Below, one piece after another: positions 17,537-53,142 of a stretch of 64,000 nt of DNA (its first letter is position 1; the number at the start of each line of letters is the position of its first letter). A program made the position numbers and the translations under genes. Below the pieces are notes generated by a model that was not told where the DNA came from, made no database searches, and worked only from the letters and a program-made list of their open reading frames with translations. The stretch comes from Octopus vulgaris (taxonomy: Eukaryota), in the NCBI GenBank assembly GCA_951406725.2, contig OX597816.1:181412001-181476000 (forward strand). Reading direction: 5' to 3'.

Positions 17537-19133
17537 TATTTCTTTATTACCCACTAGGGGCCATATAGAGGGGACATTACAAACATTGGGGGACATGGAA
17601 CATCACAATTACATAGATATGAGTAAATTGAATTTTGAAAATAATATATGAAAGCGGTGCCACTTACCTGTCCTTTTGTTTTCACTGTCATCTGAATGTT
17701 CATTCCCAATACGAAGACCATCCATATCCATTCTTACTCCGAAATACTCCTCCATATTTTCCACGAATTCATCGCTCATTCTTGTATCTTTCACCTCCCA
17801 ATTCTCCCTTTCACACCTCAACGCAAACTCATCTATATTCTTCTTTTCCAGCACTGCATATCTGGTCTCACCTATTTATACTCCTCCATTACCCTTTTCA
17901 CTTCTTTCTGTTCAGTCATAATATAAATGTTCGGCCTGGGTTCGATTTCAAACTCTTGTCTGTCTGTATTATTTTTTTCTTTTGTTTTCTTGTTGGAGGG
18001 GAGCGGGTGGGTTCACTGTCTGCAGGGATAGGGTGGGTCTGAGAGGGTGTGGGTGGTGTTGGGGTGGATTGGTGTTCTATGTTATTTTCTTTTCCTCGTA
18101 TTCTCCTCTTCCTCTTATTCCCAGCTTCCTTCCATTTCTGTGAATTCTCTTCTACTGTCTCCTTCTCCTCTGGTTTCTGCTTCTCTCTCTGTGGTTCGGA
18201 ATCCATTTCTTTCACTGAGGGAGGGCAGAAGGCTCTTATGTGACCCCTCAGGCCACACTTGTAACAACGTGGAGCTCTGCCCTCCACCCCACACTCTCAT
18301 GATCACGTCTCCCAATCTGATGCTTTCCGCCAGGTCCACCAGTACCTCGTTCTCTGCTTGCACGTTCAGCTCCACTGTTACGCCTCTCCAGCCCTCGGTC
18401 ATAACCGAGGCATGGAGAATATCCACTTCCTCCTCGTGGCCGCTGATCACAGCCGCCACAATCCACTCTGCCTCCACGTTTGGTGGCACTCCCTCGACCT
18501 TTACTCGTGTAATTTTTCTGTTTAAATACGTAGGCAAAAGTGTTACCTTTTCGGATTTCACCGCCTTCGCCGCCATCTTCCTTGCTGCATTCTCACTTTG
18601 AAAATGTACCACTACAGTACCATACTTTGATCCTCGAGTCAGAAAATTAATTTCCTCCATTCCATGTTTACAACTTCTATCTTCTTCCTTTCGTTTGCGA
18701 AAACCCTGTATATAATGGTCCTTTTATCATACCATTCTTTTCTCTTGGGTGTCGGTGCTAGTTCCACCTCACCGCTATCCTTTTTCATATATTTCTGGTA
18801 ACTTGGCACCCCTTTCTCTTCCGCCTTCTTGGTTACACCGGCATAGGTATAACCAAGCTTACGATCCATCATTCTCACTGCCTGTTCCAGTTCCTCCTCA
18901 GACGTAGACAAGTCTGTTAGGGAATCAAAGTCCATTTCCTTCTGTCTGACAGACCGAAAACGGCCGCCCGAACAGAAAAAGTGTAACGCGTAGCACCAGC
19001 GAAACGCGAAACCGCATCAACGACGTTCAAAATTTCACAACAACAACCATTCACTTTTTGTTCTTTTTTCTTTTTTAACCGAATTTCACAGAGCGCAAAA
19101 AAACACAACCGTTCAACGCAAAAAAAAACACGA
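17537..19133 (-). mobile_element. ORF1-only (HAL1-like) non-autonomous L1/Tx1-type retroelement, longest copy
   Basis: 5' leader, a frameshifted ORF1, then a short 3' UTR ending GCCCCTAGTGGGTAATAAAGAAATA. There is no ORF2 between ORF1 and the tail. Confidence 0.75.
17609..18935 (-). pseudogene. L1/Tx1-type ORF1 (gag-like RNA-binding protein with RRM-like region and zinc knuckle), frameshifted
   Basis: ORFs 18639-18935, 18115-18660, 17916-18287 and 17609-17854 chain together. Motifs GTVVVHFQSENAA and ITRVKVEGVPPNV; CCHC knuckle CYKCGLRGHIRAFC. Confidence 0.8.
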
Positions 19134-19533
19134 TCAGTGAACCAAAGAGCCAGTATCGGAAAAAACTTGAAAAAAGCCGTAAACAACAGAAAAACAAAAC
19201 CGTTGTAAAGGTAAATAAGAAATTTTTTCAGAAAATAAAGTATTAAACGGTTTGAAGCGCAATTTTTCACTGACCCAAAGAGCCAGTATCGAAGGAAATA
19301 GAAAAAAGCCGTAAACAACAGAAAATCAAGACTGTTGTAAAAGTAAATAAGAAATTTTTACAGAAGATAACGTATTAAACGGTTTGAAGCGGAATTTGTC
19401 AGTGAACCAAAGAGCCAGTATCGAAGGAACTACAAAAAAGACGGAAACAAGAGAAATAAACCAAACCGTTGTAAAAGTAGATAAGAAATTTTTACGGAAA
19501 ATAAAGTAGTAAAAGGTTTGAAGCGCTGGTCAG

Positions 19534-22259
19534 GGAAACTACTCTAGTTAAGGAATTAGAGGAAGCCATGAAAACTGGCTCTGCGGCTCAGGTGGCGTCC
19601 AAGAGACTGGTGTTAAACCAGCACCTCGAGGCCAAACACATGGGCTGCATTGTCAGGGCTAGAATCCGTCATATGGGATGTGAAGGAATCAACGCCGTGA
19701 GATGGGCCCGAGTGGTGGAAGCCCGGAATGGCAACGATGCCACGATTCGATCTTTGAAGAACCAACAAGGTGAGTTGATAGACGAACCCGAGGAGATGTG
19801 TGAGGCCTTTCAGGAGCACTTCGCTCAGCTTTTCGGTGAGTGCGGCGGGCTGGATAGGAGGAGGGCCTTTACGGACCTACTCGACGGGCTGCCGCGCTTA
19901 TCGGGGCGAGATGCGGAGGGCTGTGAAGGGCCAATCACGCCTGAGGAGGTGGTGGAGGCAATGGTTGACTGCGGCGCGGGCAAGGCGCCGGGTTTGGATG
20001 GTCTACCCTACGAGTTATATAAGAGTATGCCAGACTTGTTCGGGCACCTACTGGCGGAGGTCTATGCGAACTGGCAGCAGAACGGGCTTATACCCAGATC
20101 TGTGCGCCGGGGAGTGGTGACTCTCGTCAGAAAGGACCCGAGCAAGGGGGAGTGCATTGATAATTTCAGGCCCATCACTCTGCTAAACACAGAGTTGAAG
20201 ATTTTGGCCAAAGTGTTATCGAAAAGATTGGCGCGTGTCGCGGATGGTCTGATCGGAGAGGCACAGACATGTGCCGTTCCGGGCAGATCCATTCAGGATA
20301 ATCTCCATCTAATGCGGTACACTATAGAGGGGTTTAATAATGATTCTGGCAAGGGTGGGGTACTGGTCCATTTAGACCAATCTAAAGCCTTTGATAGGGT
20401 CGACCATCGTTACCTGGTATCTGCCCTGGCACAGTTCGGGCTGAGCCTTGGCTTCCTCAGGTGGATTATCCAAATTTACGACAACATCGACTCGGTAGTT
20501 CGGGTGAACGGCTTCTTGTCGAAGCCGTTCAAAATCAAACGCTCGGTTCGTCAAGGGTGTCCGCTCTCCCCGCTTTTGTATGTGATGGCTCTTGAGCCAT
20601 TACTGCGAAAACTGAGCGGCATCCCGAGACGGCCAGGTAATGGAAAATCAGTGTCAGCGTACGCGGACGACATCACCATCATCGTGACCGAAATGGACCA
20701 CCTATGTAAAGTAGGCAAGGCCATAGAGGTTTACGAGACGGTGACAGGAGCAAAAGTTAATCGCGAAAAGTCAGTCGGCTTGCAACTCGGCACCTGGAGA
20801 GGCAAGTCGATGCCTCCTGACAGCGTCGTGGGACGTTGGACGGAGGGTCCGATTAAACTGCTAGGGGTCTGGTTCGGTCCAGACCTCCAAATAGAGAAGA
20901 ATTGGGGCGAGGTAACGAGCAAGGTGGCTGCAGTAGCCAAGACCTGGTCTTGGCGGTGGCTATCCTTGAAAGGGAGGGCGGAGGTGGCCAATGTGTTTAT
21001 CGCATCGGTTATCACCTACCGCCTTTCCGTCGTTCCTTGCCCCGATTCGTGGTTGACCAAGTTGGAAAGACAGCTCTTCTACTTCTTGTGGAAGGGTAGG
21101 AAACCACTTGTGAAACGCTCTACTTGCTGTCAACAACCGTTAAAGGGTGGGCTAGGGATGCCTTGGCTGATGATGCGCAGACATGCGCTGAGGTTAAGAC
21201 ATCTGTGGCTCTACCTGGATGGTGAACGGGTGTGGTCTCCGTTAGCAAAACTGATGTTTCCCAAGTTCACTAGTTTCGGTGGACGGGAAACCTGGCCGAA
21301 TCGTAGATCGAAACTTGGTACATGGCATACGGAGTGTCGCAAGGCTCTCCTGCTATTCCGTCGCTCGGGCAACGCCTGCGGTGGGGGTTCCACCACATTC
21401 TTCTATAGAGGGTTGGTAGAGGCGAAATGTGAAGACACCTTGGGGGAAACCCTGGGTCTCGATGATAATCAGCTGGCCAGTCTGTTCCGACGTACGTTCG
21501 AGCCGAAGACACTGGACAACTTCCAGAAGTCTCTGGCATGGCAATGCTACAGAGGAGCTCTACCTGTTCGGGATAAACTCGCAAGGCACGGTGGCCAAGA
21601 CAGTCCGATGTGTCCAAGATGCGGGCGGGATAGGGAAACCGTCCCGCACGCTATTGTTCATTGTTCGGTCGTGTCTGAGGTGTGGGTTTATGCCGAACAG
21701 CTGTTGTCAAGCACACGAAGAGTACAGCTGTCGACTGAGTGTATTAAAAAAATTGACCCACCAGATTTCCTCGCGAAAGAAGGTAAGAATTGTTTTCTCG
21801 TTGTGGTTGCAATTGCGAAAGAGGTGATATGGAAGACGAGAATGAAAGGTATACGGTCAGGTAAGTTCATATCCGGCCCTGGGTTGATGAATTACTTCAT
21901 CTACCACCTGAAAAGGAAGATAGGGCTGGAGAGAAAATGCCTGACTAAAAGAGTGTATGAAGAACGATGGAAGGATGTAGCACGGAAGTTGAGAATGGAT
22001 GACACCACATAAATGTAAATCAGAACGAAACCAAAAGTATCAGTGGTGAGGCGGGGCTCGTGGGGTCCGAGCTGAACCCGCCCCCACTCCACCTGTAATG
22101 TATTCCGGTCTGTTTTTTTCATTCGATTTTATAATTTTTGCATTTTTGTGAATTTTTGAATTTTTAATCTCATCCTTTTTGTAACCCCATCCGAGAATCT
22201 GACCCCATATCAGGTTGTATTGTCCCCTCTTTGTTGGCCCCTTGTGGGTAATAAAACAG
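19534..22259 (+). mobile_element. 5'-truncated Tx1/L1 LINE including its 3' UTR
   Basis: Starts abruptly after satellite GAAGCGCTGGTCAG. The 3' UTR ends TGTCCCCTCTTTGTTGGCCCCTTGTGGGTAATAAAACAG. Confidence 0.88.
19568..22012 (+). CDS. Non-LTR retrotransposon ORF2 (L1/Tx1 clade): RT plus C-terminal CCHC, with the APE endonuclease lost by 5' truncation
   Basis: 814-aa open frame with KAPGLDG, NFRPITLLNTELKILAK, LDQSKAFDRVDH, VRQGCPLSPLLY, AYADD, LSLKGR, KGGLG and CPRCGRDRETVPHAIVHC. Confidence 0.95.
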   Translation: MKTGSAAQVASKRLVLNQHLEAKHMGCIVRARIRHMGCEGINAVRWARVVEARNGNDATIRSLKNQQGELIDEPEEMCEAFQEHFAQLFGECGGLDRRRAFTDLLDGLPRLSGRDAEGCEGPITPEEVVEAMVDCGAGKAPGLDGLPYELYKSMPDLFGHLLAEVYANWQQNGLIPRSVRRGVVTLVRKDPSKGECIDNFRPITLLNTELKILAKVLSKRLARVADGLIGEAQTCAVPGRSIQDNLHLMRYTIEGFNNDSGKGGVLVHLDQSKAFDRVDHRYLVSALAQFGLSLGFLRWIIQIYDNIDSVVRVNGFLSKPFKIKRSVRQGCPLSPLLYVMALEPLLRKLSGIPRRPGNGKSVSAYADDITIIVTEMDHLCKVGKAIEVYETVTGAKVNREKSVGLQLGTWRGKSMPPDSVVGRWTEGPIKLLGVWFGPDLQIEKNWGEVTSKVAAVAKTWSWRWLSLKGRAEVANVFIASVITYRLSVVPCPDSWLTKLERQLFYFLWKGRKPLVKRSTCCQQPLKGGLGMPWLMMRRHALRLRHLWLYLDGERVWSPLAKLMFPKFTSFGGRETWPNRRSKLGTWHTECRKALLLFRRSGNACGGGSTTFFYRGLVEAKCEDTLGETLGLDDNQLASLFRRTFEPKTLDNFQKSLAWQCYRGALPVRDKLARHGGQDSPMCPRCGRDRETVPHAIVHCSVVSEVWVYAEQLLSSTRRVQLSTECIKKIDPPDFLAKEGKNCFLVVVAIAKEVIWKTRMKGIRSGKFISGPGLMNYFIYHLKRKIGLERKCLTKRVYEERWKDVARKLRMDDTT

Positions 22260-22780
22260 CTACGTAAGGTTGGTAGTTTATTTATGATGTGTTCAGAATC
22301 AGTTCTGCTGACGATCATTAGACGTAAGTTGAATGTGAAATCACGGTGATACAGAACTAAATTCATTTTTTAAATGTCTTGCTTTGAAAAACTGCATTTG
22401 GGTATGATTAGTATAATTTTGGTAGTAATGACTTTGTCCCTCCTAGTGTGAGGCATTTATGTGTAATAATGCCCTCTATACAATATAGATATAATTAATT
22501 TGTTCAAAAGAAAAAAATTATTTTCGGATTCTTTTCTTTTATGAGGTTTTCACGCTAGCTACCCGATAATTTCTTGTTAAGATCCCTTATTAAGAGATTA
22601 TCCTTAATTGTTAAACTTATTCCGAAATACTTTTCATTACCCGATATGCAGTTCGTAAAAAGCCCGCCATTTACCGGATATATGATTTATAAACATTACA
22701 TGTGCTTGGCCGGAGTGAGCAGTTGTCTATTCGTCATCGCTACGTAAGGTTGGTAGTTTATTTATGATGTGTTCAGAATC

Positions 22781-22880
22781 NNNNNNNNNNNNNNNNNNNN
22801 NNNNNNNNNNNNNNNNNNNNNNNNNNNNNNNNNNNNNNNNNNNNNNNNNNNNNNNNNNNNNNNNNNNNNNNNNNNNNNNN
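22781..22880. other. Assembly gap (100 N)
   Basis: Run of N. Confidence 1.
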
Positions 22881-25800
22881 ACATCAACAGGGTATTTTTG
22901 TATGTATGTATGTATGTATGTTTGTATGTATTTCATTATTCAGCTTTATTTCAAGATTTTTTGCCAATAGAGAAAAAGCCGGTTTCTAACCTAGATCCAA
23001 GACTCCTTCAATGGAATTTAAACAACATCAACAGGGTATTTTTGTATGTATGTATGTATGTATGTTTGTATGTATTTCATTATTCAGCTTTATTTCAAGA
23101 TTTTTTGCCAATAGAGAAAAAGCCGGTTTCTAACCTAGATCCAAGACTCCTTCAATGGAATTTAAACAACATCAACAGGGTATTTTTGTATGTATGTATG
23201 TATGTATGTTTGTATGTATTTCATTATTCAGCTTTATTTCAAGATTTTTTGCCAATAGAGAAAGAGCCGGTTTCTAACCTAGATCCAAGACTCCTTCAAT
23301 GGAATTTAAACAACATCAACAGGGTATTTTTGTATGTATGTATGTCTGTATGTTTGTATGTATTTCATTATTCAGCTTTATTTCAAGATTTTTTGCCAAT
23401 AGAGAAAAAGCCGGTTTCTAACCTAGATCCAAGACTCCTTCAATGGAATTTAGACAACATCAACAGGGTATTTTTGTATGTATGTATGTATGTATGTTTG
23501 TATGTATTTCATTATTCAGCTTTATTTCAAGATTTTTTGCCAATAGAGAAAGAGCCGGTTTCTAACCTAGATCCAAGACTCCTTCAATGGAATTTAAACA
23601 ACATCAACAGGGTATTTTTGTATGTATGTATGTATGTATGTTTGTATGTATTTCATTATTCAGCTTTATTTCAAGATTTTTTGCCAATAGAGAAAAAGCC
23701 GGTTTCTAACCTAGATCCAAGACTCCTTCAATGGAATTTAAACAACATCAACAGGGTATTTTTGTATGTATGTATGTATGTATGTTTGTATGTATTTCAT
23801 TATTCAGCTTTATTTCAAGATTTTTTGCCAATAGAGAAAAGCCGGTTTCTAACCTAGATCCAAGACTCCTTCAATGGAATTTAAACAACATCAACAGGGT
23901 ATTTTTGTATGTATGTATGTATGTATGTTTGTATGTATTTCATTATTCAGCTTTATTTCAAGATTTTTTGCCAATAGAGAAAAAGCCGGTTTCTAACCTA
24001 GATCCAAGACTCCTTCAATGGAATTTAAACAACATCAACAGGGTATTTTTGTATGTATGTATGTATGTATGTTTGTATGTATTTCATTATTCAGCTTTAT
24101 TTCAAGATTTTTTGCCAATAGAGAAAGAGCCGGTTTCTAACCTAGATCCAAGACTCCTTCAATGGAATTTAAACAACATCAACAGGGTATTTTTGTATGT
24201 ATGTATGTATGTATGTTTGTATGTATTTCATTATTCAGCTTTATTTCAAGATTTTTTGCCAATAGAGAAAAAGCCGGTTTCTAACCTAGATCCAAGACTC
24301 CTTCAATGGAATTTAAACAACATCAACAGGGTATTTTTGTATGTATGTATGTATGTATGTTTGTATGTATTTCATTATTCAGCTTTATTTCAAGATTTTT
24401 TGCCAATAGAGAAAAAGCCGGTTTCTAACCTAGATCCAAGACTCCTTCAATGGAATTTAAACAACATCAACAGGGTATTTTTGTATGTATGTATGTATGT
24501 ATGTTTGTATGTATTTCATTATTCAGCTTTATTTCAAGATTTTTTGCCAATAGAGAAAAAGCCGGTTTCTAACCTAGATCCAAGACTCCTTCAATGGAAT
24601 TTAAACAACATCAACAGGGTATTTTTGTATGTATGTATGTATGTATGTTTGTATGTATTTCATTATTCAGCTTTATTTCAAGATTTTTTGCCAATAGAGA
24701 AAAAGCCGGTTTCTAACCTAGATCCAAGACTCCTTCAATGGAATTTAAACAACATCAACAGGGTATTTTTGTATGTATGTATGTATGTATGTTTGTATGT
24801 ATTTCATTATTCAGCTTTATTTCAAGATTTTTTGCCAATAGAGAAAAAGCCGGTTTCTAACCTAGATCCAAGACTCCTTCAATGGAATTTAAACAACATC
24901 AACAGGGTATTTTTGTATGTATGTATGTATGTATGTTTGTATGTATTTCATTATTCAGCTTTATTTCAAGATTTTTTGCCAATAGAGAAAAAGCCGGTTT
25001 CTAACCTAGATCCAAGACTCCTTCAATGGAATTTAAACAACATCAACAGGGTATTTTTGTATGTATGTATGTATGTATGTTTGTATGTATTTCATTATTC
25101 AGCTTTATTTCAAGATTTTTTGCCAATAGAGAAAAAGCCGGTTTCTAACCTAGATCCAAGACTCCTTCAATGGAATTTAAACAACATCAACAGGGTATTT
25201 TTGTATGTATGTATGTATGTATGTTTGTATGTATTTCATTATTCAGCTTTATTTCAAGATTTTTTGCCAATAGAGAAAGAGCCGGTTTCTAACCTAGATC
25301 CAAGACTCCTTCAATGGAATTTAAACAACATCAACAGGGTATTTTTGTATGTATGTATGTATGTATGTTTGTATGTATTTCATTATTCAGCTTTATTTCA
25401 AGATTTTTTGCCAATAGAGAAAGAGCCGGTTTCTAACCTAGATCCAAGACTCCTTCAATGGAATTTAAACAACATCAACAGGGTATTTTTGTATGTATGT
25501 ATGTATGTATGTTTGTATGTATTTCATTATTCAGCTTTATTTCAAGATTTTTTGCCAATAGAGAAAAAGCCGGTTTCTAACCTAGATCCAAGACTCCTTC
25601 AATGGAATTTAAACAACATCAACAGGGTATTTTTGTATGTATGTATGTATGTATGTTTGTATGTATTTCATTATTCAGCTTTATTTCAAGATTTTTTGCC
25701 AATAGAGAAAAAGCCGGTTTCTAACCTAGATCCAAGACTCCTTCAATGGAATTTAAACAACATCAACAGGGTATTTTTGTATGTATGTATGTATGTATGT

Positions 25801-26630
25801 TTGTATGTATTTCATTATTCAGCTTTATTTCAAGATTTTTTGCCAATAGAGAAAAAGCCGGTTTCTAACCTAGATCCAAGACTCCTTCAATGGAATTTAA
25901 ACAACATCAACAGGGTATTTTTGTATGTATGTATGTATGTATGTTTGTATGTATTTCATTATTCAGCTTTATTTCAAGATTTTTTGCCAATAGAGAAAAA
26001 GCCGGTTTCTAACCTAGATCCAAGACTCCTTCAATGGAATTTAAACAACATCAACAGGGTATTTTTGTATGTATGTATGTATGTATGTTTGTATGTATTT
26101 CATTATTCAGCTTTATTTCAAGATTTTTTGCCAATAGAGAAAAAGCCGGTTTCTAACCTAGATCCAAGACTCCTTCAATGGAATTTAAACAACATCAACA
26201 GGGTATTTTTGTATGTATGTATGTATGTATGTTTGTATGTATTTCATTATTCAGCTTTATTTCAAGATTTTTTGCCAATAGAGAAAGAGCCGGTTTCTAA
26301 CCTAGATCCAAGACTCCTTCAATGGAATTTAAACAACATCAACAGGGTATTTTTGTATGTATGTATGTATGTATGTTTGTATGTATTTCATTATTCAGCT
26401 TTATTTCAAGATTTTTTGCCAATAGAGAAAGAGCCGGTTTCTAACTAGATCCAAGACTCCTTCAATGGAATTTAAACAACATCAACAGGGTATTTTTGTA
26501 TGTATGTATGTATGTATGTTTGTATGTATTTCATTATTCAGCTTTATTTCAAGATTTTTTGCATCAACAGATCCAAAGCTCCTTCAATGGAATTTAAACA
26601 ACATCAACAGGGTATTTTTGTATGTATGTA
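22881..26630. repeat. Homogeneous 144-bp tandem array, about 26 copies
   Basis: Unit ACATCAACAGGGTATTTTT(GTAT)n...GCCGGTTTCTAACCTAGATCCAAGACTCCTTCAATGGAATTTAAACA starts at 22881, 23025 and so on, with very few variants. Confidence 0.97.
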
Positions 26631-26840
26631 ATACGTACAGATTTGTATTTTTTGTTTTATGAATGTCTTCTCATAGACTTGCATCTCTATACATGCTCAT
26701 ATATATTTAAATGATAAACTTCTGGAAAGTCTTACAGATTTTTATAGTTCCAGTGTTAGATTGGATCTGTAGTCTTCAAATCAGCTTTCTCCTCTCTGGT
26801 TTTGGGAAGCCTAATTTCCCAAGATAGGTATTCGGGCAGT

Positions 26841-26906
<66 letters not shown>

Positions 26907-26994
26907 ATGTATGTATGAATATTAAAATGCAGCAATAAAAATATACTCACATGGGTGTATATATATGTATATTTGCTATCACCACCAAGAGCTG

Positions 26995-27335
26995 CAACCA
27001 TGATCGGTACCACTCGGGCTCGCGCCAGCATTCACATGTCTAGAAAGTTCCCCTCCGAGGTACAAGTCCAGGCAAAGTTGTTTGTAGAAGACGAACAGTC
27101 ACCCATGCATACAGTCACCCCTCTCCTCGCCCACTGATGTTATCCAAGGGGAAGGCAAAGGTGGATACAACTTGGCACCAATGACGTTGCAACTCATTTC
27201 TACAGCTGAGTGAACTGGGTTAACGTGAAATAAACTGTCTTGCTCAAGAACTCAACTCACAACTCGGTCCGGGAATCGAATTCACTATCTCACGAGTGTA
27301 AGCCTGACTCTATAACCACTGAGCCATCCGTCTTC
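26995..27335 (-). mobile_element. SINE family copy (related copies at 51215-51400 and 63320-63650)
   Basis: CTAGAAAGTTCCCCTCCGAGGTACAAGTCC...GGCAAAGG...GATACA.CTTGGCACCA is shared among the copies. The tRNA-like head is on the minus strand. Confidence 0.6.
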
Positions 27336-27339
27336 ACAC

Positions 27340-27497
27340 ACACGCGCTTCATTCGGTTTCCATCTATCAAATTCACTCACAAGGCTTTGCTCGGCCCGAG
27401 GCGATAGTAGAAGACACTTACTTAAGTGCCACGTAGTGGCACTGAACCCTGAAGCCGTGTGATTGGTAAACAAGCTTCTTGCCACAGAGTCACGCCT
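27340..27497 (-). mobile_element. tRNA/CORE-type SINE (same family as 45000 and 48523)
   Basis: Reverse complement of GGCGTG.CTGTGTGG.AAGAAGCTTG.TTACCAA...GCACTT..G.AAGTGTCTTCTACTAT...GCCTTGTGAGTG. Confidence 0.75.
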
Positions 27498-27580
27498 ATA
27501 TATATATATATATATATATATAGCTGGGGAACACACATATATATATATGTATATGTATGTGTGTGTGTGTGTGTGTGTAG

Positions 27581-27835
27581 AGGTGCGTGGCTTAATGGTT
27601 AGGGTGTCAGCACCATGATCATAAGATTGTGGTTTCGATTCCTGGACCGGACGACGTGTTGTGTTCTTGAGCAAAACACTTCAGTTCACGTTGCTCCAGT
27701 CCACTCAGCTGGCAAAAGTGAGTAACGTTGCGATGGACTGGCGTCCCGTCCAGCTGGGGAACACATACGCCATAGAAACCAGGAAACCGGGCCCATGAGC
27801 CTGGCTAGGCTTTAAAAAGGGCGTATTTATTTATT
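27581..27835 (+). mobile_element. tRNA-derived SINE (second copy at 60030-60270)
   Basis: A-box GTGGCTTAATGGTTAGG, B-box GGTTTCGATTCC, body GTTCTTGAGCAAAACACTTCA, and an (ATTT)n tail. Confidence 0.8.
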
Positions 27836-27944
27836 TATATATATATATGCACACACACGTACACATACATATATGTGGGGTGGGGAGAGTGTACGCTTAC
27901 CTATTACAAATGTATGTGTACACTACCATATGTATATGTATGTG

Positions 27945-28152
27945 TGGCTGGCAGCATCGTTAGCACGCCGAGGTGAAATGCTTAGCGGCATTTCGTCCGT
28001 CTTTACGTTCTGAGTTCAAATTTCGCTGGAGTCGACTTTGTCTTTCCTCCTTTTGGGGGTTGATAAAATTAGTACCAGCTGAGTACTAGGGTCCATTTGA
28101 TAGATTTACTCTTTCCCTAAAACTACTGGCCTTGTGTCAAAATTTGAAACCA
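27945..28152 (+). mobile_element. tRNA-derived SINE with a Meta-like central domain
   Basis: GGCAG.ATCGTTAGCACGCCG...GTTCAAATT..GC...GTCGACTTTG.CTTTC.TCCTTT.GGGG..GATAAAAT.AGTACCAG. Confidence 0.75.
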
Positions 28153-28255
28153 GTAAGTATATATTGTTTTTATACACCTACATTTCCTTATAGGTACCTA
28201 TGCATCATCGTTATGCGTTCATCTGGATGTACAGAGAACGCAACGCAGTTACAAG

Positions 28256-28781
28256 TATCGTAAATCCTCAAGTATAGTCCGCCCTTGAGTATAATACGCA
28301 AGGGATTTATAGGGGGATGTACCTCTGAAAAACCTAAACCTCGTGTATATAATACGCACCCCTTCTCTAACTTGAGTCGTGCGTAATTAAGCCAGCAGCA
28401 CCAAGTCGAACAAACACTTCTTCGCATGCATAATACAATAATGGTGATGTTCTTAACTGTTATATGGGAATGTAAATATGTTTGCAAATTGTTTTTGTTA
28501 CATGTTATTCTGTGTTCTGAATACTTTTATTTTAATAAATGTTGCTTACTGCAAGTTATGGAAGATTCTTTTATGACTTCATTGCTTTCAGGCTTAGCTG
28601 AAGGTATTTTCACGCCCGACATCACAAAATGCGTCTGAATAAACATTGCCGGACAGCAAATAGAGACTTGGACATTGCTTACAAAATATTTTTCATTTTT
28701 AACCCCGTATATAGTACGCACTAGGGATTTTGACCTTTAAATTTTGGAAAAAATGCGGATTATACTCGAGGATTTACGGTA
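28256..28781. mobile_element. pogo/Tigger-type MITE
   Basis: Terminal inverted repeats TA-TCGTAAATCCTCAAGTATAGTCCGC and GCGGATTATACTCGAGGATTTACGG-TA. Confidence 0.8.
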
Positions 28782-29476
28782 TGTATTTGCCAACACACGC
28801 ATAATGTAAATGCCAAGCTAAACTGAATTTTGAGGTATACTTGCCATCTCAATATGGCTAACCACTAAGGGTGGGTGTTACTGTAGCTTGTAGCCTCAGG
28901 AGAACATCGTCTCCAGCTGGCTATTGGCACACTTTCTGTGCCGTATGGGTATTTGCAAAGGGAGGTCATCCTTCTCTCGTCAACCTAAGTGATACGCACG
29001 GACTGCAGTTTCTGGGTCTTGGCCCGTCATCAGCATACGACAATCACCGGTTTTTGATGAAAGGAGTTCCCAATGCAAATATTAATATCTTTTTTCCAGT
29101 AACTTTTCGTCACTGATCTCGAAAAAGTGTCTGCAAGCAATAATAAATCTCTGAACGAGGTATAAACAGTAACTGCAGGACAACGTGAGGTATATTTGCC
29201 ATCTCAATATGGCTAACCACTAAGGGTGGGAGTTACTGTAGCTTTTGCTTGTATACACTTTTTCAAGGTCATTGTCGTGCAGTTACTGTTTATACCTCGT
29301 TCAGAGATTTATTAAACTGAGTTGTTTTACTTGAAAATCTCCCGACTGAAACAAGTGTATACTAGTTGGAGTCAGTAATTTACTAAAATATATCAATTAC
29401 TTTATGAAATTTCGTCGCGTTCTGTCTCTAGTCTGTGCTCTAATATCAACAAGTAATGCTAAAACTATGTTCGCTG

Positions 29477-29532
<56 letters not shown>

Positions 29533-29583
29533 GTGTGTGTTTGAACACACGCATTGTCAACAAAGGCTGCATTTTCATAAGCA

Positions 29584-29967
29584 TTCGTTCCTTTATTGCC
29601 CACAGGGGGGCTAAACATAGAGGGGACAAGCAAGGACAGACAAAGCGATTAAGTCGATTATATCGACCCCAGTGCGTAGGCAAAGTCGACCTCGGTGGAA
29701 TTTGAACTCAGAACATAACGGCAGCCGAAATACCTATTTCTTTACTACCCACAAGGGGCTAAACACAGAGAGGACAAACAAGGACAGACAAACGGAGTAA
29801 GTCGATTACATCGACCCCAGTGCGTAACTGGTACTTAATTTATCGACCCCGAAAGGATGAAAGGCAAAGTCGACCTCGGCGGAATTTGAACTCAGAACGA
29901 AACGGCAGAGGAAATACGGCTACGCATTTCGCCCGGCGTGCTAACGTTTCTGCCAACTCGCCGCCTT
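29584..29967 (-). mobile_element. Dimeric tRNA-derived SINE with a Tx1-like 3' tail and a 16-bp target-site duplication
   Basis: TSD TGCATTTTCATAAGCA at 29568-29583 and 29968-29983. The two units each end GCCCC.TGTGGGYARTAAAG. Confidence 0.9.
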
Positions 29968-30120
29968 TGCATTTTCATAAGCACGTTGACTGAAGACTGT
30001 CACCGTTATATATCGGGTTATGAAACCATTGGTAGCAACTTCATAATATGTGCGTTTGTACGAGCGTGTGTATGTGTGTGTATATATGTATGTGCATGTA
30101 TATGTGTGTAAATGTATATA

Positions 30121-30177
<57 letters not shown>

Positions 30178-30699
30178 ACGTATTTGCATGTTTATGTGTG
30201 TGTACGTTTGAATACACTGTTTAATACATTCCTACTGGAATGATAAGTATTTTATTAGATACATTTTTATTAGTAGAATTAAAAGCTTTATCGTTTTATT
30301 GTCTGTGTAGCGTTTTATTTCCTAGATTCACTGGTTCAGCAAAGATATTTAATTGACGTACGCTGCGAATACAAAAGAATACAAAAACCTTAATGGTTAT
30401 TTTTATGTATTTATCAGACAGATAATGCTGTACAGCAGTGAAACATCGCAATATATCTTACAGAGGAAATTACTATGTATTTTAAATCTGAAAAACGGCG
30501 AGGTGCGTAGACCAGAGACCAGCGAGTCTTCAAGTTGAGCCTTTACTTTTGTGCATTGAGAGGCCACAGCTGTGGTACTACGGATACATAATTTTTTAAA
30601 TACTTTTTTCAGTTATTAGACAGCGGCCATGCTGGGGCACCGCCTTGAGGAATTTTAGTCGAATGAATTGAGCTCAGCACTACTCCTGTTTTTATACAA

Positions 30700-31090
30700 A
30701 CATCATCACTAGGAATATTGGTGGAACATTCTATCGAAACATCTGTCAAGTGTAAACATAACAGGTCAGATACTGTTGTTTGAGACGGACAAGACCGTCC
30801 GAGAGATCAGCTGACCTGCTGATGTGAATAGAGGCTTTGAAAATCAAAATGAAAGAGGATAATTATGGACAACTGGTTGGAAACCTCTAGCCTCTATATC
30901 CATATTATAACAGTCACATCTGAACCAATAATAATTGGTGCTCTTGGTTTTGGGAGTAAATACCGAAGGGAGATCTGAATAAGCTAGGGTTTTCAGAAAA
31001 AGAAATCAACCAGTTAACTCGCACATTACAAAGAGAATCTTTAATTGGAATAGTAAAAATATGTAAGGCTTTTCTCAAGTTTAAGACGTG
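30700..31090 (+). pseudogene. Degenerate REL-endonuclease C-terminus of an R4/Dong-like non-LTR element
   Basis: Broken translation EYWWN..IETSVKCKHNRSDTVV..IS*PADVN..KEDNYGQL..PIIIGALG parallels the 52367 ORF. Confidence 0.6.
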
Positions 31091-31192
31091 ACACTGTTTT
31101 TGTTATTCAATGATGGAGCTTTGAATTTTTTGTTAGAAACCAACTCCTTCCTAAGAGGAAGAATTCAAATAATTAAAAACAGAAGAGAACAC

Positions 31193-31264
<72 letters not shown>

Positions 31265-31469
31265 ACATGCTATTGGTTTCTTTCTTCCATCCCTCACCCC
31301 TCTCTCTTTCACCTAATATTTCCATTAGCCGGATAATATTCTGCTGGCATTCTCTTCGTATTTAGTTGTTTCTCATTCCTTTCAGCCCCTTCTTTTCCTT
31401 GCCCCACGTCCTTCGCTTTTCGTGGTGCGAAAAAGATTCTGGAGTCTGCGTCAGGATCCCCCAAAACAA

Positions 31470-31700
31470 CAGCCAAAGATGAATATCCATGCCAAAAGCT
31501 ATGCTCTGTGTTTGGTGGGATCATAAAAGCATTATTTATTATGAGCTTCTCCCACAAAACCAGACTATTCATTCTGATGTGTACTGTCATCAGCTGGCTA
31601 ATTTGAGCCAAAAAATCAAAGAATTGAGGCCGGAGATAGCCAACAGGAAACGGGTGGTGTTCCAACAAGACAATGCCCAACCACATGTGAAAAAAAAAGA
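31470..31700 (+). pseudogene. Mariner transposase fragment
   Basis: KAMLCVWWDHKSIIYYELL...VVFQQDNAQPH. Confidence 0.85.
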
Positions 31701-32249
31701 AGATCAGTTTCTCCCTAATTATTCCTCCCGTGTCCTATGACATGGCAGATATGTTGGTATATGGAGTCGAAATATAAAGGTACACTTTTTTTTGCTTCTT
31801 TGCATTTTCTTTCTAGATAGGACCTATTGTACTCCACTTCAGGCTTTCAAAGTTCCATCTTTGAACTTTTCTTCTTAAACATCTCAAATGTAAGATCACT
31901 TCCCTGAAGACGGACGCTCGTCTCATCCTATGATTTTTACGGATCACAGAGCCCCCAGAAACAGCTGTTGGATTTGTAATACTTTTCCTCCAACCCTTTC
32001 GGTTTAAATATCATTTGCACTCTGTGTATTTCGCGTATTTAATATGTTGACAGAGGGGAAACTGTGTGGAAGCCTAACATACACACACACACACTCACGC
32101 ACACACACACCCATCCACACACTGGGTCATCCCATAAATAATGCAGTTTTTCGATTACAAGAACTAAAAGTCGGAGGGGGACGAGATAAACTACCTGCAT
32201 CAACTTGCTATAAAAGCAGGTAGTAATTTTACCTTGTCTTATTCTTATT

Positions 32250-32392
32250 TCTTTAATGCCCACAAGGGGCTAAACATAGAGGGGAAAAGATGAAAGGCAA
32301 AGTCGACCTCGGCGGAATTTGAACTCAGAACGTAACGGCAGATGAAATACCGCTCAGCATTTCACCCAGGGTGCTAACGTTTCTGCCAGCCT
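32250..32392 (-). mobile_element. Internally deleted copy of the Tx1-tailed SINE
   Basis: GCCCACAAGGGGCTAAACATAGAGGGG joined to ATGAAAGGCAAAGTCGACC. Flanked by the imperfect repeat CCTTG(T/C)CTTATTCTTA. Confidence 0.75.
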
Positions 32393-32469
32393 TATAATGC
32401 CTTGCCTTATTCTTAGTGAAAGTTTTCAAGAGTGCATTTCGATTTCAACAGTTATTTTTTCAAAGCTAT

Positions 32470-33382
32470 AATGGAAGTGACAAAGGAGCACATTCGGCAT
32501 ATTTTGCTTTATGAGTTCAATAACGGCAACAACGCAATGGAAAGTGTGAGGAATATTAATGCAGTCTTTGGGGATCGGACGATAAGCATAAATTAGTGTC
32601 AATGGGGGTTCCAGAAATTTCGAGCTAGAAACTACAGCCAAGAAGGCAAGCCTCGTCCTGGAAGATATTTGTAGAGCAAACCCTGGTGGAACTGCCGAGG
32701 AACTAGCAGAGAAGCTTGGATTTGGTCAATCAACCATTTATCGACACCTGCGTGCCATCAGTAAAGTTAGCAAATTGGGTCAATGGGTTCCTCACAAACT
32801 TTCCGAGTCTAATCCCATGCACAGAGTGAATGTGTGCTCTTCTTTGCTGTCACATCTCATGAATGAACCGTTTTTGGACCAAATAGTGACTGGTGATGAG
32901 AAATGGGTTCTCTACAAAAGTGTCAAGTCCGAAGACAGTGGGTAGGGAAAAGAGAAACACTGGTACCCCAGGCTAAAGAAAGTCTTCACCCATGTAAGGT
33001 GTTGTTATCTGTTTGGTGGGATATGAAAGGCTTAGTCCCCTTTGAAGCTTTAAACTGAAACCAAATGATAACAAAGGAGATCTGCTGGGAGCAGCTTGGG
33101 TGGCTTAAGGTAGCAGTAGAAAAAAAATGACCACTTTTGGTTTCAAGAGGAAAGGTGTTCTTCCATCAGGATAATGCTTGGCCCTGTCTGATTATCATTT
33201 ATTCTGCAGCCTTCAAAATCATTTGGACAGAAAAAATATGAATTCTGTAGACGAGGTCAGAACAGTACCGGAGGAGTATTTTCCATCACGGACAAGTGAA
33301 TTTTAGAAGAGGGGCCTTGCAAGTCTACCAGATAAATGGGAGAGCATTGTAGAAAGTGAAGGAGGGTATATTTTAGATTAAA
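32470..33382 (+). pseudogene. Degenerate mariner transposase
   Basis: MEVTKEHIRHILLYEFNNG..., WVPHKL, VTGDEKWVLY, LSVWWDMKG and FHQDNA, with many stops and frameshifts. Confidence 0.85.
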
Positions 33383-34313
33383 AAAGAACTTTATATATGT
33401 ATATATATATATATATGTATATATATGTGTGTGTGTGTGTACATATGGGGGATATAGTGGATGGGAGGAACAATGTTTGGTATTATATAGTAAGATGTTT
33501 TCTCCAAGGAACATGATCTGTTTCTCCCTAATTATTCCTCTCATGTCCTATTATCGTCAGATAATAGGACAGATAATAGACAGATAATGTCGGTATATGC
33601 ATTCTCTTTATGGATAGGACCTATTATGCTCCATTTCAGGTTTGCAGATGTTTTACTATTTTCCAAAAATTCTTGGAAAAGTAACTAGTATGGCTCGGGT
33701 AGAGCTTCCTGTACGTAGTTTTAGAGAATGGTCGGTCGACCAATAGAGCCTACTACTGAATACATACTCATTTTATCTGTAGTTACTATAACGGTTCCTT
33801 CTGTCTATGAAATTGATGTGCTTCCATCTGTGGTCATCTTGACATTTTGCATAATTTATCTTTTAACTTTTATTTGCTTCAGTGAACTGCAGCCATGCCG
33901 GAGCACCACCTCAAAAGATTTTAGTCGAACAAGTCGACTCCATTATTCTTGCTTCTTGTTTTAGTCTGGTACTTATACCATTGGTACTCTTTTTGCCGAA
34001 CCGCTAAGTCAGGGGGACATTTACAAACCAACATTGATTGTCAAACGGTGGAGAGGGGGATGACAAGCACAAAGACATACAAAGATAGACACACACACAT
34101 ATGTATACACACGACGGGCTTCCGCACAATTTCTGTCTACCAAATTCACTCATAGGGAATTAGACGGTCCGGACCTATAATAAAAGACACTTGCCCAAGA
34201 TACTGCGCAGTGGAACTGAACCCGAAGCCACCCAGGCTGCAAAGTGAGCTTCTTAATCACATAGCCATTTCTCGCCTATATCTAAGATTACAATATATAT
34301 ATATATATATATA

Positions 34314-34518
34314 GTGCATATGATATTTTTGTTGTCTTCTAGTCAAGTAGGCAGTGCCTATGAGACATACGGGGTTTCCGAGGCTAGTGGGAGAGAGGAG
34401 GAAGGTAGCTCCAAACCGGAGACCTGGCTTGAAAGCTTACTGTAGAGTAAACTCTGCAAAAAGGTTTGCTAAAGACACTCAATTACTCGGTGTTTCTGTT
34501 AAACAACTCAAATAAAAC
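34314..34518 (+). repeat. 205-bp element with a near-identical copy at 35927-36131
   Basis: GTGCATATGATATTTTTGTTGTC...CAACTCAAATAAAAC occurs twice, with one visible mismatch. Confidence 0.9.
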
Positions 34519-35545
34519 ATGGCGGAAAAAACCGCCGACTTTTCGTCGCAAGTGTTGTTATCAGAACGCAAAGAGTCGGAACAAACACCGCAAGGCATTT
34601 TTTCGGACATTTTTAAAGTCCACCAATCCATCACCTTAGATACCTTTTTATCGATCCACCGAAAGGATGAAAGGCAAAGGTGGCCTTAGCATGATTTGAA
34701 TTCGGAGCACAGGGACTCGGAAAACCACCACACAGCATTTCAACCGATGTCCCAACAACCACCCAGCCATTTCACCGCCGTTAAGGCAGTAGTGTGCGAC
34801 TTGAGAAAGATTTGGTTTCTATTTCTAGCAGGGTCAAGCGATCATGTAGAAGTTCTTTCTGCTTGGCTGGAGTGGGGGTGGTACGTATATCGTTCTGAGA
34901 AAATGTGAATTAGAGACTCACTAGAATATAAAACACGAAAGGTCAAAGAAGTTGATATATGATCAGTTGATATATGAATAATCACATTTGCTTTGGCAAA
35001 AAGCAGCATTATCTAACATCCGTCTCGTTGCAAATAAAGGAAAAACACAACTAAAACAAAAGCACAATGAAAACAAACAATGAGAAATTAACATACTTTG
35101 ATAAATATAAGCGAACACAGTAGCGTAGACGCATTGTTAAACGTATGCAGAAAAGAATCGAGACGAATCGAAGAATGTGCTTCTATACTAAGGGAGGGTG
35201 AAGAACGCTGGTTTAAAGTTTTTAGATAGAAAACAGTAACGTAAGAGATGTTACATGCCTATGAGTCACTAAAAATACAAATTCGATATTTTCTCTCAGC
35301 ACAAACGCATTTCGGCACGTCCCTGTGCATTTTATTCTCACCCCTCTTGTATAATGTCGACTAAAACAAACGGCTGTGAAATTTCTCTCAAATTACACTC
35401 TGTAGATTAGATTATGTAGTTCGAGATAATCAAGCTTGAATATGAGACGGGATGGTCACGGATGGTATACCTCTTATCATAGGTTCACTCAATCAAGGCT
35501 TATCTAGGTGTAAACTAAGGGCAACAGCCGAGTAAGATTGGAATA

Positions 35546-36690
35546 TACAGAGTGGGCCGTAATGTTGGGACACATTTTAATTGCTAGTATCTTGGGTTAT
35601 AAAAATGACATAGAGTACCAAATACAGTTATGTAATAAATAACTGATATACAGCAATTCAACATATCTAAGATTTTACAATTTTTACAGGTAGATGGTGC
35701 TGGTGACCCTCATAATGTTGTGGACTCCAAACGAAATTGCATACGTTGGTGAAGCATATTTCACCAGCCAAAGATCCATCGTTGCTGCCCAAAGAAAATC
35801 TCGACAGTGTTTTGGAAAGCGATAGGTATCATCCTGAAAGATGGTCCTGTGTGCGGTCACAAACTTTCGTGAGACAAACGATACGGAGAAGAATAAAAAC
35901 CCCAGGTCGATCTCGAACGTCTCGTGGTGCATATGATATTTTTGTTGTCTTCTAGTCAAGTAGGCAGTGCCTATGAGACATACGGGGTTTCCGAGGCTAG
36001 TGGAAGAGAGGAGGAAGGTAGCTCCAAACCGGAGACCTGGCTTGAAAGCTTACTGTAGAGTAAACTCTGCAAAAAGGTTTGCTAAAGACACTCAATTACT
36101 CGGTGTTTCTGTTAAACAACTCAAATAAAACGCTTTTGAAGAAAGTCCCTCGAATTCCACGCATCGATTCGCTTAACAGTTGAATATTTCGCGAACCAGT
36201 GTCTGAAAGATTTGAAAACATGACATACACTTGTATCCATGTAAGGTACAGCTAGTGCAGCAATTGCCTCCGCCAGATAAGATGCAAAGAAAGACTTTTA
36301 GTGATTGGTTCGCCAATATGTGCTGGGAGGAAGAGGATTTCATCAGATGAAGTTCCTTTTAACCTTTTTGATTATGTTAATAAATGAAATTGTAGGTTTT
36401 GGGGGTTGTGAAAGTCCTCAAATCGTGCATGAAAGGACTTTGCACAGTGAGGGGGTTACAGTGTGGTGTGCGGTGACTTATGCATGTGTGGCTGGTGCTT
36501 ACCTTTTTAAGGACGAACACGGTGCAGCTGTAAAGGTAACTGCTGAGCGCTACAACCATATGCTGAAGACCTTTCCCGAGTTACAGAAGCTTGCCCTGAC
36601 ACAGATGTGGATGCAACAAGATGGTGATTGTCAAGGACAACTCTTCGAGAATAATTCCCCAGACATCTCATTTCGCCGATAGTTGTTGTT
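35546..36690 (+). mobile_element. Degenerate Tc1-superfamily transposon, interrupted by a 205-bp insertion
   Basis: TA-CAGAGTGGGCC terminus. Translation includes SDE..F and LHSEGVTVWCAVTYACVAGAYLFKDEHG...MWMQQDG. Confidence 0.65.
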
Positions 36691-37877
36691 GACATACAAC
36701 AGCAGTAATTTTATTCAGCTGAATACACGTCATTGAGTGGTTGAAATTGCCGAAATACGAGAAATTTAACGTCAAATAACTTCGTAAATATAAATTTTTC
36801 TCAAAAACGCTAAGAGTAAAAGATGTTTTATATGACACATTCTACCAGTATCCGAAGTTTGAAAGTGTTTCATTACAAAAAATTATTTTTAAAATCTGTA
36901 GGTCAAAAGGTAAAGATCCCAGTTCTAACCATACCGCAAAGGATTCTGTTTATCAACAACTAAGAATATCACTTTTTGATTTGTTTGCAATGGTTATGAT
37001 GTAATATGTGCAAGTCAGAGGATAAGGTTGCATGTAGCAAGTTGAAAAAAGGGCTTGTGTTTGAAGAAAGGCCGCGTGCTGCATAAATATTTCTGGATGC
37101 ATTGAAAGAAATTGACGCAAGAAATAGTTCATAGCTATCCTTGATTTTATTCAACCGTTACGAAGTTTTTCACAAAATACAAATGTTAGTTTTAATAGAG
37201 AGAATATCTTGTAGAAGTCTATCATCAAGTTGTATGAAAGGAGAAAAGCAATGATATAAAGCTCGTGCGAGATTTGCAACTAATAGTAAGTTAGCTGTCT
37301 GTAAATAGCAGAGGAAAGAAGTCAGGCGCTGGGGAGAAAGGAAGGAAATTTGACTATAAAAGTTGCCAAAGAAAGAATATTTTGCTGTTTGTGTCTCAAA
37401 TTCATACTTGTGCCAAAGTCGAACTAATCAATAACAATGGAATTGTATGAGCTGTCTCAATCGAATTCTTTCTCACTTAAGATGGTGACGATTTCGAATG
37501 ATGACACTAACAAATTCTGAGTGCAAATTCAGAGAACAATGGACAGACGCATGAAGACCGAGGTTTCGATTCTTGGTTATGCGTTCAGCGTGTATCTGCT
37601 GCATGCTTTTTTTTTTTTTTTCTGTTTTGTCCTCAATTAAGATCTTTTGTTCTCAATTGACCGGGTGAAGTACTTTATTAATTTAAAGGACAGTGGATTG
37701 GCATAATTGTGAGGGCGTCTCCCCTACCGTATTCACTTATACCTACATACGTTCTATGATCAAATCACGCCACGTTCAGTTTTGTTTTTCATTCTTCAAG
37801 AACCTATAAAATAAGCAACCGTCAATTAATAAATATGATTGATATAATCGATGTTATGTACCTATATTAGATATCAA

Positions 37878-38325
37878 GGCTGAATCGTTAGCACGCCGGA
37901 CAAAATGCTTAGCAGTATTTCGTCTGCCGCTACGTTCTGAGTTCAAATTCCGCCGAGGTCGACTTTCATCCTTTCGGGGTCGATTAAATAAGTACCAGTT
38001 ACGCATTGGGGTCGATATAATCGACTTAATCCGTTCGTCTGTCCTTGTTTGTCCTCTCTGTGTTTAGCACCTTGTGGGTAGTAAAGAAATAGGTATTTCG
38101 TCTGCCGCTACGTTGTGAGTTCAAATTCCGCCGAAGTCGACTTTGCCTTTCATCCTTTCGGGGTCGATTAAATAAGTACCAGTTACGCACTGGGGTCAAT
38201 ATAATCGACTTAATCCGTTTGTCTGCCTTTCATTCTTTCTGAGCCGATAAAATATGTACCACTTGAACCCTGGGGTCGATCTCTTACCAGAAATTGCTGG
38301 CCTAGTACTAAAATTTGAAACTAAT
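37878..38325 (+). mobile_element. Multimeric Tx1-tailed tRNA SINE
   Basis: The first unit ends GCACCTTGTGGGTAGTAAAGAAATA and restarts at GGTATTTCGTCTGCCGC. Confidence 0.85.

Positions 38326-52191: not shown

Positions 52192-53142
<951 letters not shown>

Follow-up and report, generated by a model that had tools for sequence, protein, structure and literature searches.

A 3′ terminal hairpin tail shared by an L1/Tx1-type LINE, ORF1-only elements and an abundant SINE in Octopus vulgaris

Elements at the locus

The stretch analyzed here, referred to as the window, comprises 64,000 nucleotides of the 2.8-Gb Octopus vulgaris genome (assembly GCA_951406725.2, contig OX597816.1, positions 181,412,001 to 181,476,000, forward strand). 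It contains ribosomal DNA (rDNA) fragments, a 134-base satellite, an element with a LINE-type first open reading frame (ORF1) and no ORF2, termed ORF1-only, a long interspersed element (LINE), an assembly gap, a 144-base satellite and dispersed short interspersed elements (SINEs). The LINE, the ORF1-only element and the SINE end in the same tail, and the three-tier tail-sharing system that they form is real and well supported. Its members in the window are the following.

17535 to 19136, minus strand: ORF1-only element of family A1, about 1.6 kb, with a 5′ untranslated region (UTR), ORF1 (18935 to 17660), a short 3′ UTR and a tail (17582 to 17535)
16504 to 16968, minus strand: internally deleted ORF1-only derivative (5′ end plus 3′ end) with tail
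15291 to 15780, minus strand: second deleted ORF1-only derivative, within a 1213-base higher-order repeat
14078 to 14567, minus strand: third deleted ORF1-only derivative, within the same 1213-base higher-order repeat as the second
19532 to 22258, plus strand: 5′-truncated L1/Tx1-type LINE (Pfam), with the ORF2 remainder (reverse transcriptase and zinc finger) to 22012, a 3′ UTR and a tail
22215 to 22258, plus strand: LINE tail, with a TGTCC motif, the hairpin GCCC-CTTGT-GGGT, AATAAA and an end without poly(A)
29588 to 29965, minus strand: SINE dimer, with a head bearing A/B-box-like motifs, a body and tail (ending at 29735), a second body and tail, and a target duplication of about 17 bases
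32244 to 32387, minus strand: shortened SINE with the shared tail
37878 to 38230, plus strand: 5′-truncated SINE, with a tail at 38050 to 38091 (stem mutated), followed by a partial second unit

Of a 5.25-kb element the window LINE retains the 2.7 kb at the 3′ end, and Pfam detects RVT_1 (E 3e-32) and zf-RVT (E 2.5e-9) in its ORF2 remainder. A full-length copy at locus L043 is 99.4% identical to it over 2803 bases, 3′ flank included, so the window LINE is not clearly an independent insertion. The L043 copy encodes an ORF1 of 451 amino acids upstream of an ORF2 of 1133 amino acids, the latter with an apurinic/apyrimidinic (AP) endonuclease (PF03372), a reverse transcriptase (PF00078) and a C-terminal zinc finger (PF13966). 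The nearest solved relative of ORF2 is human L1 ORF2p (E 5e-69, versus 6e-26 for R2), and homologue searches returned mostly unnamed proteins. Judged by its domains, with an AP endonuclease, reverse transcriptase and zinc finger in ORF2 and a separate ORF1 carrying RNA recognition motifs (RRM) and a CCHC knuckle, the LINE belongs to the L1/Tx1 superclade; ORF1 type and target preference make Tx1 a more probable placement than L1, the tree having used unnamed homologues only. The lineage shows such a preference, recurring at fixed sites in repeats and in the 5′ ends of its kin. The subfamily is small, with 47 exact matches to the 35-base tail motif, mostly in tandem, and a sister subfamily with 88-97% identical ORF2 and a different 5′ UTR has the same hairpin. 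An O. vulgaris annotation lists 80 L1-Tx1 families covering 56 Mb, tails not being described in the accessible part of that source (PMC13282606).

The shared tail and its hairpin

According to the preliminary description of this DNA, all three kinds of element can fold a GCCC/GGGY hairpin just before AATAAA. The LINE tail at 22221 to 22255 (plus strand) and the ORF1-only tail at 17576 to 17537 (minus strand) read exactly as quoted there, and BLAST within the window aligns the LINE tail with the ORF1-only tail at 36/41 identity (E 3e-7) and with the SINE at 29781 to 29741 at 36/42 identity (E 2e-5). The hairpin stands in most of the cited copies and fails in the SINE at 38050 to 38091, where GCAC breaks the stem; the hexamer is less constant in the cited SINEs, two of three reading AGTAAA and the copy at 29590 ending AAAGGAAC. 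Four further tails lie in the window, one in the 5′-truncated SINE (32287 to 32244) and three in the ORF1-only derivatives (16545, 15332 and 14119).

At the family level the tail is present on all three tiers. It follows the family 3′ UTR in 30/30 LINE loci and in 30/30 ORF1-only loci, each set being the best 30 of 40 scored matches ranked by similarity to queries that contained the tail, and a SINE-tail pattern of 35 places has 68,487 exact matches in the genome (reversed control, 0). The preliminary description had considered that the tail on the LINE and ORF1-only element could be a separately inserted, 5′-truncated SINE peculiar to this locus. The match is indeed only about 40 bases long, yet a chance match or local SINE fragment is refuted, its probability being next to nil: the tail ends every one of those family loci in family-specific variants, and a diverged form ends four other Tx1-like lineages.

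These lineages came from a genome search with a decayed relative and two distant ORF2 C-termini, and their ORF2 C-termini are 45-65% identical. In all five Tx1-like lineages the element closes with a TGTCC-like motif, a hairpin and an AATAAA-like sequence. The stems of the other four are as follows.

GGCC/GGCC and GCC/GGC: lineage followed by (ATT)n
AGCC/GGCT: lineage followed by (ATCT)n
ACC/GGT: lineage followed by (CT)n
ACCT/AGGT and TCCT/GGGA: the F191 group (F191, F195 and F196)

The (ATT)n, (ATCT)n and (CT)n microsatellites in which sister lineages end are presumably targets rather than tails. Among the sampled loci L161-L220 there are several young Tx1-like families with open ORF2 of 1138, 1152 and 1159 amino acids, lying beside (CT)n, (ATCT)n and (ATT)n.

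The stem hardly varies within the LINE, ORF1-only and SINE families of the window, so that covariation had to be sought between Tx1-like lineages. There, the check proposed in the preliminary description came out positive, the stem changing on both sides, with few independent events. The hairpin stands directly before the hexamer in 23/23 representative tails, 1-97 of 500 shuffles per tail reaching its score. Pairs were counted in the 13 tails with 5-base loops, the 10 of 23 with other loop lengths being excluded and the 23-row MAFFT alignment, which misaligned loops of unequal length, not being used; 98% of cells pair and 2 of the 4 pairs change on both sides, against 21-52% pairing in slid controls, and RNAalifold recovers the same four pairs.

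Several results weaken the case for the hairpin as the recognized structure. Single-tail folding by itself lends it no support, none of the six window tails outperforming its shuffles (z -0.62 to +0.70). Three related rows account for the C-G to G-C change, which probably arose once, and the 0/500 shuffle result therefore makes too much of it. The window-lineage hairpin has an ensemble probability of about 0.4-0.6 or loses to pairing with an upstream C-run, and only older lineages reach 0.8-1.0. The alternative pairing of GGGY with upstream TGTCC or C-runs, predicted in several window-lineage tails, is not common to the lineages, and the terminal hairpin is therefore preferred.

Copy ends and the polyadenylation hexamer

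The preliminary description had counted the polyadenylation signal as part of the working tail. Copies insert without poly(A), however: runs of 8 or more within 35 bases of the hairpin occur in 0/35 LINE, 1/52 ORF1-A, 0/10 ORF1-B and 3/124 SINE tails, that is 4/221, counts that omit 73 unclassified matches with other lineages and chance matches among them. Copies end 3-6 bases past the hexamer; those of the SINE share one terminal position and show no read-through. The hexamer is AATAAA in LINE and ORF1-only tails and AGTAAA in 62/124 SINE tails. AATAAA may still end RNA polymerase II (Pol II) transcripts; it does not mark the start of the copy.

These ends bear on the idea that the tail serves RNA processing or stability through Pol II 3′ end formation, that ORF2p is relaxed and that the SINE inherited its tail at birth by template switch. 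Pol II cleavage is expected 10-30 bases downstream of the hexamer, a different place from the observed stop at 3-6 bases, and the missing poly(A), the AGTAAA of half the SINE tails and the uniform SINE ends do not fit it. SINE bodies with other tails, described below, also keep a CTTGT-loop hairpin with different stems that still pair. The AATAAA of LINE and ORF1-only tails speaks for this idea, as does the accessible account of the L1 clade as generally relaxed and seldom sharing tails with SINEs (PMC3747384); on balance we consider it unlikely.

The ORF1-only lineages

In the window A1 copy ORF1 is broken into four frame segments; its relatives carry a single open frame of 454 amino acids in units of about 1.65 kb. 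A protein search with the ORF1 core gave 150 scored matches at 63-100% identity, and in 30 of those loci the tail lies about 700 bases past the core in 29. ORF2 was found between ORF1 core and tail in 0/30 ORF1-only loci. With an intact ORF1, no ORF2, a LINE-type 3′ end and many copies, the octopus units are of the HAL1/HeT-A kind.

A second ORF1-only lineage, B, has a different 5′ UTR. In a tree of 44 rows, the ORF1s of A, B and the LINE form three separate clades with a mutual identity of 32-37%, and their divergence is about that among the ORF1s of other Tx1-like families; the ORF1-only units are therefore old lineages rather than fresh deletions of the window LINE. By this sequence comparison, at least two old ORF1-only lineages coexist. 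The ratio of nonsynonymous to synonymous substitution (dN/dS) is 0.09-0.16 in nine pairs, restricted to copies with an open core, and dS is saturated across lineages, a pattern indicating that ORF1 in these lineages is under purifying selection. The model of the shared ORF1 core (predicted local distance difference test, 77) contains two RRM folds and matches tandem-RRM proteins (best E 1e-5), and a zf-CCHC knuckle is found in 12/12 ORF1 members (best E 4e-5). Protein searches with ORF1 returned only Octopus proteins, the closest from O. vulgaris and O. sinensis, and no named family. One annotated Octopus protein, P0111, starts with the C-terminal part of an ORF1-only protein, its gene model having probably absorbed an element.

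Of 25 stretches, picked around matches and not at random, 9 contain LINE and ORF1-only units joined head-to-tail, and an ACATGG site is common to both kinds of unit. These mixed trains vary between loci in order and family content, have varied junctions, and lie mid-contig on many large contigs, not being confined to chromosome ends. A tail-only ORF1-B fragment at locus L047 is flanked by a 16-base target duplication and 5′-truncated ORF1-A copies are present, which argues for true retroposition. In line with the retroposition assumed in the preliminary description, its hallmarks were found on all three tiers. At two loci (L044:7172-7780 and L013), two different LINE 3′ ends are joined inside a single target duplication, as a template jump would give.

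Some of these data also suit a different history, in which ORF1-only units spread mainly at the DNA level, carried by a Helitron-like repeat and multiplied by tandem duplication, rather than as active LINE parasites. In family A2, a single AACAT site marks the end of 28/29 loci, and 8/30 have a common 5′ junction within one and the same host repeat; this repeat terminates in a hairpin and CTAG, which we take to be Helitron-like ends. Near-uniform arrays of 14-19 ORF1-only units with a period of about 1.7 kb lie at C5:100.95-100.98 Mb, C8:9.60-9.63 Mb and C10:47.67-47.70 Mb, and the window derivatives have been amplified in the 1213-base satellite unit. Since many trains sit at one host-repeat site and the long arrays look tandem-duplicated, copy numbers overstate independent insertions. 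Such spread inflates copy number but cannot build mixed trains, whose order, family content and junctions vary by locus; nor does it fit the purifying selection that ORF1 shows between lineages whose dS is saturated, the 5′-truncated copies or the tail-only insert with its duplication. We regard it as improbable, slightly more so than the RNA-processing explanation. The host repeat (flanks of L064, L081-L085 and L036) also carries a decayed ORF1 fragment, and the AACATGG of this fragment is the landing site of many trains on different contigs.

The SINE

Full SINE copies measure about 235 bases and are often multimers of body plus tail behind a single head. The A/B-box-like motifs of the head were read by eye; ARAGORN and Rfam found no tRNA match in the SINE. 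Target duplications flank 25 of 60 head-to-tail units (11-30 bases, median 16; mismatched control, 3/1167) and begin G/T/A-R-T-A-Y, with T at base 3 in 23/25 and A at base 4 in 24/25. An internal GGTAT site of the SINE fits this motif, and locus L105 shows a SINE inserted there, which would explain the multimers.

Some SINE bodies bear other tails, again with CTTGT-loop hairpins, whose stems differ in sequence yet still pair: AGGC/GCCT in 10, TGGC/GCCA in 6 and GGGC/GCCT in 4 of 178 matches. Such SINEs (TGGC-CTTGT-GCCA or RGGC-CTTGT-GCCT) also occur in the window near 28140, 38290 and 52040, and at L084, L111, L126 and L146. For the TGGC/GCCA tail, inspection by eye led us to reject a Dong/R4-like element in the window as the partner.

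Which LINE carries the SINE

The window lineage, or a close ancestor, is the most likely carrier of the SINE. Among the lineages compared, only the window lineage has the GCCC-CTTGT-GGGY hairpin of the SINE. Its targets fit ..TAY at 6 of 21 distinct sites (about 5% expected from base composition, by our estimate), and target duplications, similar in length to those of the SINE, flank 3/3 dispersed truncated copies with both ends in view and 4/7 such copies overall.

A number of observations pull the other way. The SINE tail is a mosaic, with a hairpin like that of the window LINE and 29 upstream bases identical to F191, which makes the window LINE a likely partner, not a firmly established one. 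Tail scores against the SINE are 72.5-80.5 for F196, 63.5-69.5 for F191 and 56-66.5 for window-lineage LINEs. No duplication was found in 3 of the 7 LINE copies with both ends in view; the SINE target motif fits only 4/22 ORF1-A elements, two of these being misclassified SINEs, and 0/4 ORF1-B elements; and the (ATCT)n-targeting lineage has ..TAY junctions too. There are 47 exact window-subfamily LINE tails for 68,487 SINE tails. Median divergence from the column majority is 5.7% for SINEs (24 copies met by chance) and 2.4% for window LINEs (30 top matches, biased young), the LINE being rare and, with the two samplings differing, younger-looking.

These observations invite the reading that tail recognition is real but that the SINE owes its tail and mobility to one or more other Tx1-like lineages, F191/F196-like, unsampled or extinct, the window LINE being a relative. 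The 29 upstream bases, the tail scores and the greater divergence of the SINE favor it, and there is room for such a lineage among roughly 15,000 first-look candidates for Tx1-like ORF2 C-termini, tails having been examined at 60 + 30 loci. The F191, F195 and F196 hairpins differ from that of the SINE, however (ACCT/AGGT, TCCT/GGGA), their junctions are not ..TAY, and the SINE's own hairpin occurs only in the window lineage. Of the 30 loci with the shared 31-base motif, 29 are SINEs and one is an F191 element with its own hairpin; no LINE with both the SINE upstream motif and the SINE hairpin appeared among 30 of 237 matches. We hold this reading possible, the less favored of the two. Most likely, to judge from the tail sequences, the SINE tail was captured from an ancestor or unsampled member of the group formed by the window lineage, F191 and F196.

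Proposed mechanism and its meaning

Taken together, the sequence data suggest that a Tx1-type ORF2p probably recognizes the shared tail and starts target-primed reverse transcription on LINE RNAs, ORF1-only RNAs and the SINE. The best reading of the hallmarks observed is tail-directed (stringent) priming that moves both parasites, with binding, a priming site and mobilization in trans that we infer from them. ORF2p would bind the predicted 4-base-pair tail hairpin, nick the target and prime a few bases past the hexamer, inside the RNA. ORF1-only RNAs would carry a coat of the ORF1p that they encode themselves, with ORF2p borrowed from the LINE. The SINE, presumably an RNA polymerase III transcript without a terminator of its own, would borrow the same machinery, the priming site setting its fixed 3′ end; it would land in the GGTAT site of another SINE, and copying of the read-through RNA would yield multimers.

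A broader and more speculative proposal, slightly less probable than a partner from another lineage, is a short 3′ hairpin code among Tx1 elements, in which one SINE body switched among at least three CTTGT-loop hairpins (GCCC/GGGY, TGGC/GCCA and RGGC/GCCT) and thereby exploited different Tx1 enzymes. Such enzymes might then have driven much of the SINE expansion specific to octopus, and the ancient ORF1-only lineages might be partners in the manner of HeT-A, packaged together with the LINE and giving rise to the interstitial mixed trains.

In textbooks, animal L1-clade elements stand out as the exception for which poly(A) suffices. A family of Tx1 type whose copies lack poly(A), whose tail hairpin covaries and which has two kinds of dependant would offer an animal test case for the proposal that stringent recognition is ancestral in the L1 clade. 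It would also provide a candidate driver for a SINE that is among the most abundant in octopus and add Tx1-derived ORF1-only lineages to HAL1, HeT-A and Ag-Sponge, and the natural hairpin variants in five lineages could serve in swap experiments.

Relation to known systems

The comparisons below reach as far as the accessible parts of the cited papers. For L2, CR1 and RTE it is established that tails are shared and hairpins recognized (PMC4176376; PMC3747384), and ZfL2 assays are a precedent for hairpin recognition by ORF2 (PMC4176376). UnaL2/UnaSINE, ZfL2 and the CR1, L2 and RTE pairs resemble the octopus system in a shared 3′ stem-loop tail, a variable stem, a more conserved loop and no reliance on poly(A) (PMC4176376; PMC3747384), whereas the octopus LINE is of L1/Tx1 type, with a stem of only 4 base pairs and no terminal microsatellite of its own. 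In the accessible text, none of the 58 SINE-LINE pairs in a table has a Tx1 partner, and L1 is the partner in three, all of them from maize or Chlamydomonas (PMC3747384). Those pairs, ZmSINE2/3 with LINE1-1_ZM and SINEX-3_CR with L1-1_CR, likewise have an L1-clade 3′ hairpin with compensatory changes that is shared with a SINE, there a tRNA SINE (PMC3747384); they are plant and algal, whereas the octopus system is animal and includes target-preferring sister families and ORF1-only tiers. The crocodilian SINEU, inferred to be moved by Tx1-Mar, also uses a site inside another transposon and inserts in tandem (PMC4494074), but that link rests on target, age and 5′ heads, which are derived from small nuclear RNA, the available account giving no shared 3′ tail (PMC4494074).

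HAL1, HeT-A and Ag-Sponge match the octopus ORF1-only units in having a 5′ UTR, ORF1 and a LINE 3′ end without reverse transcriptase (PMC5786205; PMC5753468). They derive from the L1, Jockey and CR1 clades, with none from Tx1 named in those parts of the sources (PMC5786205; PMC5753468). HeT-A forms mixed head-to-tail arrays with TART and TAHRE at Drosophila telomeres (PMC5537684), whereas the octopus trains are interstitial. The octopus differs further in its two or more coexisting ORF1-only lineages, each about as far from the LINE ORF1 as are other Tx1 families.

The octopus SINEs OR1, OR2 and OK are tRNA-type, with OR1 and OR2 filed as CORE-SINEs (PMC4824008; PMC4758252), and are likened to the present SINE by description only. 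Mollusc SINE studies name no Tx1 tail partner in their accessible parts (PMC4758252, PMC4824008, PMC11481361, PMC8967140), and the term Tx1 does not occur in PMC11481361. Each ingredient has a precedent (SINE-LINE tails, HAL1/HeT-A and SINEU). No publication met in our literature search combines them in an animal Tx1 clade or describes the octopus three-tier system, whose families Repbase, Dfam or subscription papers may already list.

Other features of the window

The surroundings of the system include two further features.

3482 to 19526, no strand: 134-base satellite (Tandem Repeats Finder), which hosts ORF1-only copies and meets the LINE 5′ end
22259 to 22780, plus strand: 480-base tandem unit with a TATA-like motif, forming the LINE 3′ flank and also flanking LINE copies at L043 and L050

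The 480-base unit has TATAAA, an initiator-like CAGTT about 27 bases on and GTAAG motifs; window-lineage LINEs and one ORF1-only element insert just past its putative start site. Rfam found no match in the unit, which may be a multicopy transcribed unit.

Across the window, Rfam reports only large subunit and 5.8S ribosomal RNA. A rearranged rDNA unit (1-1900, minus strand, and 1950-3480) holds partial 28S, 5.8S, duplicated pieces of internal transcribed spacer and only the last 60 or so bases of 18S, and adjoins GC-rich repeats and the 134-base satellite, which is possibly spacer-derived. The 144-base satellite (22881-26562; 25.6 copies, 99% identity) directly follows the 100-N gap, a possible assembly junction. 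By eye, from the translations, 52367-52966 (minus strand), 42738-43568 (minus strand), 46012-47013 (minus strand) and 32430-33400 resemble transposon fragments, the look-alikes being a Dong/R4-type LINE between (TAA)n runs, an RTE-type LINE and mariner transposases.

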